Shown here: positions 3-5,300 of the stretch, one piece after another
How the letters are laid out: each line of letters starts with the position of its first letter
Numbering within the stretch: position 1 is the first letter of the stretch
From: a virus
Lineage: Duplodnaviria > Caudoviricetes
Reading direction: 5' to 3' (one strand)
DNA length: 28,326 bases
Virus record (IMG/VR): IMGVR_UViG_3300044723_009834
Coordinates: 1 to 28,326 of that record
Position numbers and translations under genes: made by a program
The notes under the pieces: model-generated
The model's input: the letters and a program-made list of their open reading frames with translations, nothing else
What the model was told of the DNA's origin: nothing
Databases searched by the model: none

Positions 3-1871
3 ATAACAGCAAATCAAGTAGCTATAAAAAATGCAGGTAATACAGAAAATGTAGCTGTTTTTAATGAAGATTCAGATGTTAGGTTATTTTATGACAATTC
101 AATAAAACTAGCCACAACCTCAACAGGCATAGACGTAACAGGTCATATTGATTCAGCCACATTAACAACTACAGGAAATGTTGTAGTTGGTGGTGATTTA
201 ACTGTACAAGGTACTACAGTAACTTTAAACACAGCTACCCTAGATGTCGAAGATAAGAACATAACTGTAAATGCTGGGGCAGGAGATACTTCAGGTTCTG
301 CTAATGGTGCAGGTCTGACTATTCAAGATGCTGTAGATGCTTCTACCGATGCTACAATTCTTTGGGATGCAACTAACGATGAGTTTGATTTCTCACATGC
401 TATCAATGTTACAGGCAACATAGCAGTCTCAGGAACAGTAGACGGAAGAGACGTTGCAACAGACGGAACAAAACTTGATGGAATAGAAGCCAGTGCTGAT
501 GTAACAGATTCAGCAAATGTAGGCTCAGCCCTTACTGGTTTTACCACGGGTACAGATGCTGCAAGTTCAGACCTAATTCCATATTACGATGTTAGTGCAA
601 GCTCTTGGGAGAAAGGCACTATTGCAGATGTAGCTTTACAAGGTCCTACAGGTTCTACAGGAGCAACTGGTCCTACAGGTCCCACCGGTCAAAAGGGTCA
701 AAAAGGAGAGGTTGGTGCGACAGGAGCTACAGGAGCTACAGGTGCAAAAGGACAAAAAGGAGAGGTTGGTGCGACAGGAAGTACAGGACCCACTGGTCCT
801 ACTGGTCCAACTGGATCTAAAGGACAAAAGGGAGAAATAGGGGCTACCGGACCAACAGGTCCCACAGGCTCAACAGGTCCTACTGGTCCTACTGGTCCTA
901 CTGGTCCTACTGGTGCCAAAGGTCAAAAAGGTCAAACAGGTGCAACTGGACCAACAGGACCGAATGGACCCACTGGTCCAACTGGTAGCACTGGACCCAC
1001 AGGAGCGAAAGGGCAGAAAGGACAGACTGGTGCTACTGGTCCGACTGGTCCAACAGGACCAACTGGACCTACAGGCTCAGTTACAGTAAGCAACAATGTA
1101 AACAACCGAGTAATTACAGCGACAGGTGGTGCAACTGCAAACGCAGAGTCAGGTCTTACTTATGATGGTTCAGTTTTAACTTCAATTGGCACAGCTTTGT
1201 TTCGCCCATCAACAGCCTCAGATAACTTTGGTTTTGAAATTAGAACTGGTAACAGTGCTGACACAGGAATGAAGATCGGCAGATCTGGTACTAACAATGC
1301 ACAAATGGGAATTGTAGTTAGTTCTAATGGTACTAGTAGTTATGCAAATCTAATTATGAAGATTAGTGATACATTGGCTTTTAATAGTGCTGCAAATATA
1401 TCATTAAGATATGGTGGCTTGGTAAGAATACAGGCTGCATTTTCAAATGATACATATGCAACTCATAGAGCAGTATATGCAGAAGATCAGGGTGAGCTTG
1501 GCTATGCTGCTTCAGTTAGAGCATCAAAAACAAACATACAAGATTTATCTGATGTTTCATGGTTGTTAAATTTAAAGCCAAAAACATTTAACAAAAGATT
1601 AAAAAACGAAGATGGTTCATATTCAGAAACTGAACACACCAATATCTTAGAGGTGGGCTTAATAGCTGAAGATGTTGAGTCTGAAAATAATATTTTGTGT
1701 TTTTATGATGTAAACAGAACTACAGACGATGATGGCAATGAAACTGTTACACAAACAGATTTAGCAGGTATTAGATATGAATTGTTAGCAGTTCCATTAT
1801 TAAAACTTGTACAAGAACAACAAACATTAATAGAGTCATTAGAGTCTCGTATAACAGCTTTAGAAGGGTAA
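3..1871 (+). CDS. Tail fibre with collagen triple-helix region and C-terminal peptidase S74-type intramolecular chaperone (5'-truncated)
   Basis: Frame 3 is open from base 3 ([12 protein letters not shown]...) through the collagen block and into the tracked ORF 1197..1871, which is in the same frame; I found no stop. Beta-rich fibre motifs ([30 protein letters not shown]). C-terminal S74-like motifs [28 protein letters not shown] and a terminal coiled coil. Confidence 0.9.
642..1082 (+). repeat. Collagen-like (Gly-X-Y)49 coding repeat
   Basis: Hand translation gives 49 consecutive Gly-X-Y triplets: GPT/GAT/GST runs punctuated five times by GxK-GQK-G(E/Q)x. Confidence 0.95.
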
Positions 1872-1876
1872 CAAGA

Positions 1877-1918
1877 GCATATAAATATGCTATGATGTAA
1901 AAATCATAACTTAGGAGG
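1877..1918 (+). promoter_or_regulatory. Putative extended -10 promoter with two small palindromes and RBS for the modification cassette
   Basis: TGcTATGAT at 1888-1896; inverted repeats GCATAT-aa-ATATGC (1877-1890) and TATGAT-n6-ATCATA (1891-1908); AGGAGG at 1913-1918 before ATG 1923. Confidence 0.5.
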
Positions 1919-3067: not shown

Positions 3068-3465
3068 TAAAAAAAGGTTTTACTTGTGGAGCTTTTGATT
3101 TGTTACATTCAGGGCATATAGTTATGCTTATGGAAGCTAAAGAGAATTGTGATTATCTTATCGTTGGATTGCAAACAGACCCATCTTTAGACAGAAAAGA
3201 AAAAAATATGCCTATACAATCTATGTATGAAAGATACATACAATTAAAAGCCGTTAAATATGTTGATGAAATATTGCCATACGACACAGAAAGCAGTTTA
3301 TTAGATTTATTAGAAGCTACACAAATAGATATAAGGTTTGTCGGTGAAGATTATAAGAATAAAAAATTTACAGGTCATGGTTTGCATAAAACCTATTTTA
3401 CAAGTAGAAATCATAGCTTTTCTACAACATCTCTCAGAGAAAGGATTGAAAGTGCTAAGAAATGA
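3064..3465 (+). CDS. HxGH cytidylyltransferase (TagD/glycerol-3-phosphate cytidylyltransferase-like)
   Basis: GAFDLLHSGH, DYLIVGLQTDP, PIQSMYER, VKYVDEI, GEDY, SRNHSFSTTSLRERI. Confidence 0.9.
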   Translation: MIKKGFTCGAFDLLHSGHIVMLMEAKENCDYLIVGLQTDPSLDRKEKNMPIQSMYERYIQLKAVKYVDEILPYDTESSLLDLLEATQIDIRFVGEDYKNKKFTGHGLHKTYFTSRNHSFSTTSLRERIESAKK

Positions 3466-5300
3466 AAAAACTTGTTATATCTTTGCTCAAAAGAGCAGAC
3501 AGAAAAGTTGCATTTCAAAAAAACAACTTACTTGATTTTGAATACATACAAGCCATTGATGGTGAAGCCAACATCTTTAGGCATATACAGGCTAGACCTA
3601 ACTGGTTAGACCCTTTTCAAAATAGACCCTTACAACAAAACGAGGTAGCTTGTTTTCTGTCACATATCAAAGCTTGGGAAAGGTGTGTTGAATTAAATGA
3701 ACCCGTCATAATCATGGAAGATGATGCAATCATTAATCAACACTGGGATGAATCAAAGTATGCAGAGCTTATAAAAGAATATCCTTTTATCTATTTGCAA
3801 CGCAACGAAAATGTGCCTGACCAAGTTACCCCAATAAATGACTACATAGAACGACCAAGCTATCCATACAACATGACCGCTTATTGTTTACACCCCCTTG
3901 GTGCAAAAAAATTACTTCATACAGTTAATTACAATGACTTTATACCCGTTGATGAGTTTTTGCCCGAAGTTTTAAAAACAACATCACTGCAAATAGTTGC
4001 CTTAAAAGAAGATGCTTGCAATCAAATACACAGAGATTTATCACAATCTGATATAGAAAACAGCAAACCTTTTAGACCATACAAAGTCCATGCAGTAACT
4101 TGTGGCACAGATAGAAAAAAATGCACTTATGTAAACACCAGTGCTAGAAAATATGGCATAGATATAGTCAATGTTGGAACAAACATAGAATGGGAAGGAA
4201 CTGATATGTCAGCATTAGGCGGTGGCATGAAGATTAACCTGATGAAAGATTATGTAGAACATTTGCATGATGATGACATAGTTTTATTTACAGATGCCTA
4301 TGATGTTTTTTACGCTGATGATCTTGAGACAATCACGGAAAGATTTTTAGAATTTAATAAAGAAATAGTTTTTAGTGGTGAGTTATATTGTTATCCACAT
4401 GATCAACTAGCAACAGAATTTCCAAACGCACCTACAAGGTTTAAATACATAAACAGTGGAACTTATATTGGCAGGGTTAGAGAATTAAAGAAGTTATACA
4501 ACCATGAAAAAATAGAACATTGGGATGATGATCAGCTCTATGTGCATAAATGTTTTCTCTATGGAGATTTTGACATAGCGATAGATTATGAGTGTTATAT
4601 ATTTCAAACGCATTTTGAAGGCACTATTAAGCTAGGAGAACAGCTTAACAATCCTGAAACCAACTGTTGCTCGTGCATTTATCATGGCAATGGGGGTCAA
4701 GACACCACTGCTAAGTTTTTAAGCCTGTACAACGCATTTCACGCACCCTCAAGTGCATATTTTATACCGCATAACAAAGTAGATTACCTATCAGAAGATA
4801 TGCTTGTAGTAGACTTTATGACTCAAGAGCAGTGCGAAAAATTAATAGAACTGGCAGACAGACATGGTGGTTGGGGTTCATTGTCTTATGATAAATTTCC
4901 TGCACAGGAGATTCGCATGAAAGAATTGGGATTGTGGGAAGAATTAGAAAAGGCTTGGCAAGACTACATTGTTCCGACAGTAGAAAGATATTGGAACCCA
5001 TTAGAGATGTATGGTCTTAGAGACGGATTTGTAATGCGATACTCACTTGAGACACAGACAAATTTAAATCTGCACCATGACGCAAGTTTAGTTACAGGAA
5101 GCATAAAACTTAATGATGACTATGTGGGTGCTGACTTAATATATCCAAGACAAGGAATAACCAATAAAGATATACCAGTGGGTAAATGCATTTTATTTCC
5201 CGCACAAGTTACTCATGGTCATGAGTGTTTGCCATTAATACAAGGAATTAAATATAGTTTAACAATATGGTCAAAAAGATTCCCCGCTGATACAATTTAA
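3462..5300 (+). CDS. Three-domain collagen-modifying enzyme: GT25 (COLGALT-like) + PLOD-type glycosyltransferase + PLOD-type lysyl hydroxylase
   Basis: aa ~1-203: ISL.KRADR, AIDG, DPFQNRPL..NEVACFLSH..AW, MEDDA, AY.L...GAKKLL, IPVDEFLP. aa ~208-415: W.G.DM...GGGMK, LFTDAYDV, FSGELYCYP, YINSGTYIG, DDDQL, IFQ, HGNG. aa ~445-612: C.KLIE....G.W, FVMRY...Q..L..HHDAS, FPAQVTHGHECLP...GIKY. Confidence 0.88.
   Translation: MKKLVISLLKRADRKVAFQKNNLLDFEYIQAIDGEANIFRHIQARPNWLDPFQNRPLQQNEVACFLSHIKAWERCVELNEPVIIMEDDAIINQHWDESKYAELIKEYPFIYLQRNENVPDQVTPINDYIERPSYPYNMTAYCLHPLGAKKLLHTVNYNDFIPVDEFLPEVLKTTSLQIVALKEDACNQIHRDLSQSDIENSKPFRPYKVHAVTCGTDRKKCTYVNTSARKYGIDIVNVGTNIEWEGTDMSALGGGMKINLMKDYVEHLHDDDIVLFTDAYDVFYADDLETITERFLEFNKEIVFSGELYCYPHDQLATEFPNAPTRFKYINSGTYIGRVRELKKLYNHEKIEHWDDDQLYVHKCFLYGDFDIAIDYECYIFQTHFEGTIKLGEQLNNPETNCCSCIYHGNGGQDTTAKFLSLYNAFHAPSSAYFIPHNKVDYLSEDMLVVDFMTQEQCEKLIELADRHGGWGSLSYDKFPAQEIRMKELGLWEELEKAWQDYIVPTVERYWNPLEMYGLRDGFVMRYSLETQTNLNLHHDASLVTGSIKLNDDYVGADLIYPRQGITNKDIPVGKCILFPAQVTHGHECLPLIQGIKYSLTIWSKRFPADTI

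Follow-up and report, generated by a model that had tools for sequence, protein, structure and literature searches.

To our knowledge, hydroxylation and glycosylation of collagen lysines have so far been demonstrated for animals and giant viruses alone. Phage-encoded glycosyltransferases reportedly modify virion proteins of mycobacteriophages (a system attributed to Freeman et al., 2023), which is said to involve neither a hydroxylase nor a collagen substrate. In humans the collagen reactions are carried out by two proteins, LH3/PLOD3 and COLGALT1/GLT25D1 (PDB 6fxk, 9evj and 8zgc). Mimivirus L230, a collagen lysyl hydroxylase/glucosyltransferase (PDB 6ax6), acts on viral collagen and joins an N-terminal GT25 domain to a C-terminal lysyl hydroxylase domain in a single viral chain; the sugar it transfers is Glc rather than Gal, and no glucosylation was detected on mimivirus particles (PMC9614988). 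Iyer et al. 2010 (PMC2938197) describe bacterial operons that combine beta-hydroxylases and sulfotransferases with collagen-like or tail-collar proteins, and there, as here, 2OG oxygenases were predicted from gene neighbourhood to modify the co-encoded collagen-like or tail proteins. Those operons differ from the locus described below in their enzyme families, in sulfation rather than glycosylation, and in their location on bacterial chromosomes; that paper reads cyanophage dioxygenase arrays as secondary-metabolite genes. In our literature search, no paper was found that describes a module of the following kind in phages.

The window analysed here, 28,326 nt from a tailed phage, begins with five genes on the plus strand, as are all features given below. 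The first encodes a collagen-containing tail fibre (3..1871, C-terminal 622 aa; ORF with Pfam Collagen and Peptidase_S74 matches), the likely substrate. It is followed by genes for a small 2OG-Fe(II) oxygenase (1923..2492; PF13640, 2OG-FeII_Oxy_3; PiuC/PKHD-like, with H105-x-D107, H166 and R176), an FkbM-family SAM methyltransferase (2489..3067; Pfam FkbM), a TagD/HldE-like cytidylyltransferase (3064..3465; Pfam CTP_transf_like) and a 612-aa fusion of GT25, PLOD-type glycosyltransferase and lysyl hydroxylase domains (3462..5300; Pfam GT25 and GT_PLOD, with PDB matches for the lysyl hydroxylase domain). Holin and virion genes lie downstream. The fibre ORF is 5'-open in the window; its full length is 1125 aa in locus L001, in which the remaining cassette genes are 100% identical to those of the window.

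We consider it likely that the fibre and the fusion, the core of the locus, form a mobile fibre-plus-enzyme module in which the fusion is predicted to make a hydroxylysine-linked disaccharide on Gly-X-Lys triplets of the fibre. The observations behind this reading are the domain content of the fusion, its conserved metal and catalytic residues, the presence of fibre lysines at Y positions only, and a genomic linkage that runs in both directions; the catalytic steps are modelled on the animal and mimivirus pathway.

An earlier note had described a fibre gene followed by four enzyme genes with ATGA overlaps at 2489-2492, 3064-3067 and 3462-3465, set among virion genes, and the ORFs, overlaps and Pfam calls all agree with this layout. 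The note read the overlaps as translational coupling. Stop/start overlaps occur at 9 of the 15 junctions of the operon and at 6 of the 12 junctions outside the cassette; they are therefore commonplace in this operon and no proof of functional coupling, and we rejected them as a sign of a functional unit. Between the fibre gene itself and the small oxygenase gene there are 51 nt, which include a separate RBS. A promoter scan gave fewer sites than expected from shuffled sequence (16 vs 20.7), and none of six terminator-like sites fell between the fibre and the cassette. In the RNA runs only 6-10% of words were present, and contigs from four RNA runs were scattered, divergent pieces, which demonstrate neither transcription nor co-transcription.

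The fusion shares all three catalytic domains with LH3, COLGALT1 and mimivirus R699 (9dyt), and its sequence and fold resemble those of LH3, COLGALT1, L230 and R699. Across 57 homologues its catalytic residues vary little or not at all. The GT25 domain (3465..3959), like the COLGALT1 catalytic domain, keeps the EDD metal motif (E86-D87-D88) and the equivalents of C412 (C64) and D522 (D164). The PLOD/LH3-type glycosyltransferase domain (4089..4730; PF25342, E 1e-44) keeps the equivalents of K89, E141, N165, D190, D191 and Q192 (K257, E307, N331 and D356-D357-Q358) and the HGNG motif (408-411, with H408 and N410 in place), and the residues that give its sugar-acceptor pocket its form are retained; W145 is Tyr (Y311), at a position where the family consensus is Trp. 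The lysyl hydroxylase domain (4794..5264) has a DSBH fold nearest to collagen lysyl hydroxylases (phmmer E values: LH3 2e-10, L230 3e-10, PiuC 0.16). Its iron triad (H538-x-D540 and H587) and 2OG-binding Tyr (Y527) are invariant in the 57 homologues, and the Fe triad and Tyr814 equivalent of L230 are kept.

Two residues count against the preferred reading. Trp495 of COLGALT1, which is essential for Gal transfer, is N137 in the GT25 domain, and this Asn is invariant in the 57 close homologues; Trp occupies the position in 20 of 40 compact relatives and in 36 of 39 long ones. The 2OG-binding Arg (R887 in L230) is K597, a conservative change that is invariant in the close family, with Lys in 33/40 compact relatives and Arg in 34/39 long ones.

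In a structure model of the fusion (pLDDT 90.6), the lysyl hydroxylase domain superposed on 9nev, 6ax6 and 6ax7 with an rmsd of 2.0-2.7 A, the PLOD-type domain gave 2.3-3.2 A overall (2.3-2.5 A for the best matches), and the GT25 domain gave 2.8-4.1 A. L230-sized relatives of about 900 aa, such as Megavirus courdo11 K7YEL3, have the same order of GT25, GT_PLOD and lysyl hydroxylase domains, and their length, their PDB matches and a Megavirus match by fold suggest that they come from giant viruses. They carry about 250 extra residues where the fusion has no accessory domain, whereas in the 612-aa chain GT_PLOD ends at residue 423 and the hydroxylase begins near 445, leaving no room for one. The fusion likewise differs from LH3 and COLGALT1 in uniting the activities in one chain without a non-catalytic GT1 or accessory domain, in opening directly with a GT25 strand without a signal peptide, and in having a likely substrate that lacks Y-position Pro. 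Unlike L230, it has Val583 at the position of the dimerisation residue Leu873 and belongs to a virus of prokaryotes (cultured relatives infect Synechococcus and Rhodobacteraceae), and its gene adjoins that of the likely substrate, again a viral collagen but in a tail fibre. A search for longer fused forms returned two proteins. DNA hypermodification by a TET/JBP dioxygenase with a glycosyltransferase was not supported, as neither oxygenase had a TET/JBP-family Pfam match at E 0.01.

The collagen run of the fibre (642..1082) consists by sequence count of 49 unbroken Gly-X-Y triplets with five KGQKG motifs. The X positions hold 21 Pro, 11 Ala, 8 Gln, 6 Ser and 3 Glu, and the Y positions 34 Thr, 10 Lys, 3 Val, 1 Ile and 1 Asn. 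All ten lysines are thus at Y, within the KGQKG motifs, and Pro is found at X only. Near the C-terminus there is a match to Peptidase_S74 (1524..1679; E 1.6e-4, 22.4 bits vs a cut-off of 22), an intramolecular trimerisation chaperone. Across the collagens of fusion loci that have 6 kb or more of upstream sequence (6272 triplets), Lys occurred 1782 times at Y and never at X, and Pro was at Y in 22 triplets; the lysine pattern matches lysyl hydroxylase specificity (PMC11012932). Control collagens also favour Lys at Y (699 of 4042 Y positions), so this bias is not diagnostic by itself, and we discarded it as a mark of an enzyme substrate. In comparisons with 16 other fibres of this type, 0-27% of the non-collagen length of the window fibre was shared, yet the motif was present in all of them.

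The earlier note had called for a survey of viral metagenomes for the fusion together with Gly-X-Lys collagen genes, and had named the occurrence of homologous cassettes mostly in phages without collagen repeats as an outcome that would refute its reading. This refuting outcome was not observed. In viral contigs with at least 6 kb upstream, a KGQKG collagen gene lay 0.9-2.9 kb before the fusion in 27 of 27 loci (16 of 16 after removal of near-identical loci), in podo-, sipho- and T4-like backgrounds. In the reverse direction the enzyme was nearby in 26 of 62 KGQKG-collagen contigs, but in none of 79 KGD-collagen contigs and none of 77 Lys-poor GPT-collagen contigs; with at least 4 kb downstream the counts were 18/28 vs 0/41 and 0/37. 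These contigs are not mutually independent, and habitat and lineage may not be matched in the control sets. No enzyme domain was found in the stretch examined for the other 10 of the 28 KGQKG contigs, and when 32 enzyme-negative contigs, most of them less than 30% complete, were searched over the whole record, just one split pathway and one weak match came up in addition. Three loci (L008, L009 and L019) had the cassette without collagen in 3.0-5.6 kb upstream, in records 11-19% complete. A scan of 185,579 prokaryote genomes with two peptide patterns, a search of low sensitivity, revealed no cellular fusion family; it returned six contigs, five from MAGs and one from a Prochlorococcus assembly, of which three had a KGQKG collagen directly upstream.

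This linkage bears on the possibility that the fusion modifies host surface glycans in the manner of an LPS-type GT25, or some other substrate, and merely hitch-hikes in a variable tail region, with KGE forming salt bridges. Annotations place GT25 in LPS biosynthesis, marine-phage glycosyltransferases close to tail fibres have been read as host O-chain modifiers (PMC7029224, PMC12801897), and viral collagens frequently have KGE/KGD salt bridges (PMC11923368). However, for each of the three domains the top PDB matches are to collagen enzymes and not to bacterial GT25 (E 2e-13 vs 5e-4), the pairing persists in phage types that are unrelated and despite mosaic fibres, and the enzyme is missing near KGD-rich collagens. 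Of 1397 lysines, 883 were in K-G-Q and 411 were in K-G-E/D; most of them can therefore not be accounted for by i+2 salt bridges. We regard this possibility, with host glycans or another substrate as the target, as very unlikely.

Another proposal accepts the fibre as substrate with different chemistry, namely no step beyond hydroxylation, one sugar instead of two, or Y-position Thr in place of hydroxylysine as the glycosylated residue. Thr fills 34 of the 49 Y positions, (Gly-Pro-Thr)10 needs galactosylated Thr to form a triple helix (PMC11923368), the acceptor-site Trp of GT25 is Asn here, and Hyl but no Glc was detected in mimivirus particles (PMC9614988). Against this, Thr-rich collagens without Lys were never accompanied by the enzyme (0/77 contigs), the full fusion also accompanies fibres poor in Thr (4-13% of Y positions, e.g. 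L098, L091 and L056), and the acceptor-pocket residues of the PLOD-type domain are preserved. Such alternative chemistry therefore seems unlikely to us.

Under the preferred reading of a hydroxylysine-linked disaccharide, the reactions would take place in the infected cell and would need O2, Fe2+, 2-oxoglutarate and UDP-sugars from the host. On still-unfolded fibre chains, 5-hydroxylysine would be formed by the C-terminal domain; GT25 would then attach one hexose and the PLOD domain another, which would give a Glc-Gal-Hyl-like product; since the GT25 domain of L230 uses Glc, the donor sugar of the fusion is not readable from homology. The triple helix would then zip from the C-terminal S74 chaperone, each trimer would carry as many as 30 modified sites, and the stalk would probably be shielded or stabilised; adhesion and receptor mimicry, also proposed in the earlier note, would be further possible benefits.

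The earlier note had proposed a dedicated fibre-modifying cassette of four enzymes, and this is partly supported: the substrate-plus-enzyme relation is strongly supported for one of the four, the 612-aa fusion, by the two-way co-occurrence and the catalytic residues. It is not supported as a four-gene unit, because the small oxygenase, FkbM and the cytidylyltransferase lay within 5 kb of the fusion in only 35, 19 and 4 of 68 loci, respectively, and in relatives they are often far from the fibre. They are optional partners, not the module core. The small oxygenase is a candidate hydroxylase of X-position Pro; a classical prolyl 4-hydroxylase was rejected, given a PiuC-like enzyme and no Y-position Pro in the window fibre. 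Its PDB matches were PiuC/PKHD hydroxylases only, an Atlas search returned only the same Pfam family, and its single-sequence fold was unusable (pLDDT 35.7). The FkbM product, which varies between loci, is a candidate sugar O-methyltransferase, and the cytidylyltransferase is probably a passenger at this position.

An extension of the preferred reading, not an alternative to it, would place all four enzymes in one fibre pathway of X-Pro hydroxylation, Hyl disaccharide formation, sugar O-methylation and a CDP-activated cap. In 11 fusion genomes at least 90% complete, the seven with the small oxygenase had Pro-rich collagen and the four without it had Pro-free collagen (Fisher p 0.003), and the two agreed in 38 of 44 tree rows; after tree correction, with only five independent contrasts, the co-variation was not significant (sign test p 0.25-1). 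Furthermore, P0135 has a methyltransferase joined to the fusion, L466 combines FkbM with GT25 in one protein, and the cytidylyltransferase is present in 8/11 near-complete fusion genomes vs 1/11 controls. On the other hand, the small oxygenase matches 348 phage records vs 11 for the fusion, FkbM is absent from 5 and the cytidylyltransferase from 3 of the 11 genomes, both are usually distant from the fibre, and the cassette has no transferase for a CDP-activated donor. We find a single four-enzyme pathway doubtful. We would put forward as a speculation of similar weight that phage tail fibres undergo full animal-style collagen maturation, with the Hyl disaccharide, X-Pro hydroxylation in Gly-Pro-Thr and a glycan cap from FkbM and the cytidylyltransferase, and that the compact phage enzyme represents a minimal, possibly ancestral form of the PLOD/COLGALT machinery found in giant viruses and animals.

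If confirmed, the preferred reading would extend hydroxylysine glycosylation of collagen beyond animals and giant viruses to bacterial phages, and would turn a family now filed as auxiliary metabolic or LPS genes into virion-maturation genes. A fusion free of the accessory domain also has implications for how PLOD and COLGALT arose. Glycosylated collagen had not been achieved in bacteria as of 2022 (PMC9546862), and the fusion is a candidate single enzyme for its production. The cultured phages S-PRM1, S-CAM9 and CRP-6 have the same pairing of fibre and fusion and make a direct test possible; in GenBank their fusion genes are labelled 'hypothetical protein'. PHROG 61, filed under auxiliary metabolic genes, matches the whole fusion (E 8e-106), and its label, '2OG-Fe(II) oxygenase', names one domain only.

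The fibre and the enzyme cassette that follows it are a real feature of the window, a viral record of 28,326 bases and 54% completeness that has a plus-strand late operon and, past 21 kb, an integrase and replication module. The first ORF (3-1871, plus strand) covers the last 622 aa of a tail fibre whose full length, 1125 aa, is present in the near-identical locus L001. Within this ORF, a collagen run of 49 unbroken Gly-X-Y triplets (nt 642-1082, plus strand) has 21 Pro, 11 Ala, 8 Gln, 6 Ser and 3 Glu at X and 34 Thr, 10 Lys, 3 Val, 1 Ile and 1 Asn at Y, and its lysines make up five KGQKG motifs; the fibre C-terminus (plus strand) gave a profile match to the S74 chaperone. 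Farther downstream, the virion module at 6034-21315 includes PHROG 511, 496, 610, 611, 596, 594 and 616 and an LPD38 giant protein, and shows ~30-35% identity to podoviruses of ~55-62 kb (Vibrio, Ralstonia, Sinorhizobium and Stx-converting E. coli phages). The virion-region protein at 12085-12576 has an Ala/Gly low-complexity run (AGAGAGAGAA repeats).

The gene at 3462-5300 (plus strand) encodes a fusion of three domains, GT25 (PF01755), GT_PLOD (PF25342) and lysyl hydroxylase (LH), recognized by Pfam and PDB matches. Its best PDB matches were collagen enzymes only (human LH3, COLGALT1, and mimivirus R699 and L230), and each domain of an AlphaFold model based on 57 homologues (pLDDT 90.6) superposes on these structures. 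Residues reported as essential in COLGALT1 (E435/D436/D437, C412, D522; PMC12003778) align with E86/D87/D88, C64 and D164 of the fusion, and N137 takes the place of W495, without which COLGALT1 transfers no Gal. Of the residues essential in LH3 (K89, E141, W145, N165, D190, D191, Q192; PMC10342707), all are present, as K257, E307, N331, D356, D357 and Q358, except W145, which is Y311. Likewise, H825, D827, H877 and Y814 of L230 are matched by H538, D540, H587 and Y527, and R887, also essential (PMC5802723), by K597. The mapped positions are invariant or nearly so among the homologues, the exception being 311, where the consensus is Trp. L230 likewise joins GT25 and LH in one chain, and relatives of ~900 aa, such as Megavirus K7YEL3, share all three catalytic domains and add an accessory domain, which is absent from the fusion.

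The earlier note had called for a survey of viral metagenomes for the fusion together with Gly-X-Lys collagen genes; a forward scan of viral contigs yielded 58 fusion loci. In all 27 loci with at least 6 kb of upstream sequence (27/28 when 4 kb sufficed), the fusion is preceded by a KGQKG collagen gene whose end lies 0.9-2.9 kb away. Eleven of the 27 match the window or another row at 95% identity or more; removal of near-identical loci left 16/16. Three loci (L008, L009, L019; records 11-19% complete) had other genes and no collagen in the available 3.0-5.6 kb upstream. Among 6272 triplets of fusion-linked collagens, Lys occupied Y 1782 times and X never, and Pro occupied Y 22 times; Lys at X is reported not to be hydroxylated (review, PMC11012932). 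The pairing appears to span several phage types, judging from neighbouring genes: the window flanks look podovirus-like, L022, L023 and L038 seem to have siphovirus head-tail and tail-tube genes, and L031-L058 to form another group. Among cultured phages, the fusion follows a KGQKG fibre at a distance of one to three genes in the T4-like S-PRM1 and S-CAM9 and in the Roseobacter phage CRP-6. The fusion-linked fibres are mosaics, and the window fibre has 0-27% of its non-collagen length in common with 16 others.

For the reverse direction, three collagen patterns were scanned, each over part of the viral collection, with flanks fetched for 80 rows each: KGQKGE[VI]G, GPKGDKGDTG, and a Pro/Thr-rich GPT pattern with almost no Lys. 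Once 12, 1 and 3 loci, respectively, had been dropped as repeats from a contig already counted, a fusion domain (E < 1e-8) was found in the fetched stretch of 26/62, 0/79 and 0/77 contigs, and, with at least 4 kb downstream, in 18/28, 0/41 and 0/37 (Fisher p < 1e-8 for KGQKG against the controls, uncorrected for kinship; lineage and habitat may not match across the sets). At 1e-4, one weak GT25 match appeared in the GPT set. One contig is common to the two directions (L107 in the reverse set, L031 in the forward set). Whole-record searches gave matches in 13/18 further KGQKG records, in 2/32 earlier-negative ones, mostly small fragments, and four single-domain matches in 47 GPT records. The GPT control is the most telling, as it has the same Pro/Thr-rich repeats with almost no Lys and no enzyme in the fetched stretches. 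KGE and KGD are known to form salt bridges (PMC11923368), but in the fusion-linked fibres Gly-Gln follows 883/1397 lysines. In four loci (L095, L109, L080, L108) the tail region is myovirus-like, and small oxygenase-like genes are interspersed among several short KGQKG-collagen genes; no fusion lies on these fragments, whose records are 4-15% complete.

The presence of the three small genes varies. The ATGA overlaps said to link the four enzyme genes (2489-2492, 3064-3067, 3462-3465) are present exactly as claimed, but 9/15 operon junctions overlap, including 6/12 beyond the cassette; overlaps are therefore the rule in this operon and do not single out the cassette as a unit. In 68 loci with collagen (near-identical loci and the window included), genes up to 5 kb from the fusion included the small 2OG oxygenase 35 times, FkbM 19 times and the cytidylyltransferase 4 times. 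Whole-genome counts, from 11 fusion genomes of 90% completeness or more, were 7, 6 and 8; of 11 control genomes, searched for two of the genes, 2 had the oxygenase and 1 had the cytidylyltransferase. One phage group has the small genes well away from the fibre, next to genes resembling ribonucleotide reductase.

The oxygenase goes with proline at X, which reached at least 10% in 34/35 loci with a nearby oxygenase and at most 6% in 25/33 without; the 11 near-complete genomes split 7/0/0/4. In L037 the oxygenase was found first, and the fibre, then fetched, was Pro-rich. Of 44 fusion proteins placed on a tree, 38 fit the rule, but a sign test on the only 5 independent pairs was not significant. 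Gly-4Hyp-Thr peptides form stable helices. Earthworm collagen has 4Hyp at X (PMC8233474). The oxygenase family is common in cyanophages without the fusion (348 records against 11 for the fusion), and its six best-ranked records are the copies beside the fusion in S-PRM1 and S-CAM9. We regard the oxygenase as a plausible partner of the fusion; FkbM and the cytidylyltransferase are possible partners.

A dedicated system that hydroxylates and glycosylates the fibre, as first suggested, is thus supported for the fusion, given the two-way KGQKG linkage and the catalytic residues, and unsupported for a four-gene unit, given the variable small genes. Fibre and fusion probably constitute a lysine hydroxylation and glycosylation module; that all four enzymes form one pathway is unlikely. 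The activity of the fusion, its sugars, the order of steps and the benefit are what we infer. Most likely, the fusion would act inside the infected cell on fibre chains not yet folded, because animal collagen modifications are impossible once the trimer has formed (PMC8968730). Lysines would be hydroxylated, GT25 would attach a first hexose and the PLOD domain a second, and the fibre would then trimerise from its C-terminus. L230 attaches Glc rather than Gal, and Hyl, not Glc, was found in mimivirus virions (PMC9614988); with this precedent and the N137 change, the glycan could therefore differ from the animal type.

The new aspects are that the enzyme is compact, occurs in tailed phages, lies beside its putative tail-fibre substrate and co-varies with it at the motif level. 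Iyer et al. (2010) predicted that bacterial collagen-like and tail-collar proteins are hydroxylated and sulfated by enzyme families other than those of the fusion (PMC2938197), and marine phage glycosyltransferases have been interpreted as modifiers of the host surface (PMC7029224, PMC12801897). Searches of open-access papers, a body with few subscription journals, found no account of a phage lysyl hydroxylase-glycosyltransferase, although supplements to phage-genome papers could name the domains. Extra 2OG oxygenase and sulfotransferase-like clusters adjoin the cassette or fibre in L008 (1-2244), L009, L019 and L470 (15682-17181), reminiscent of the operons predicted in PMC2938197.

Variant architectures were also found. 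An N-terminal GT4-type domain stands in for PLOD, giving a GT4-GT25-LH fusion, in L063 (13292-15553), L071 (8460-10745), L076 (5063-7522), L467, L468 and, by profile matches, L469; in 5/6 of these loci it adjoins Lys-containing collagen genes of up to 475 triplets. In L466 (genome G029, 67 kb, 96% complete; possibly, on our impression, an archaeal virus) the pathway parts are in separate genes. These swaps and the split set argue that GT25 with LH forms the invariable pair and that the second sugar step can be exchanged. The split set (5777-14872) comprises a GT25-FkbM fusion, a GT25, a stand-alone LH, three small 2OG oxygenases and a weak GT_PLOD gene; it adjoins a family-B DNA polymerase, and at least ~17 kb separate it from the KGQKG collagen gene. 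In P0135 an O-methyltransferase is fused N-terminally to the entire fusion, and in L038 (8052-8834) and L058 (9144-9953) a class I methyltransferase, no kin of FkbM, lies between fibre and fusion.
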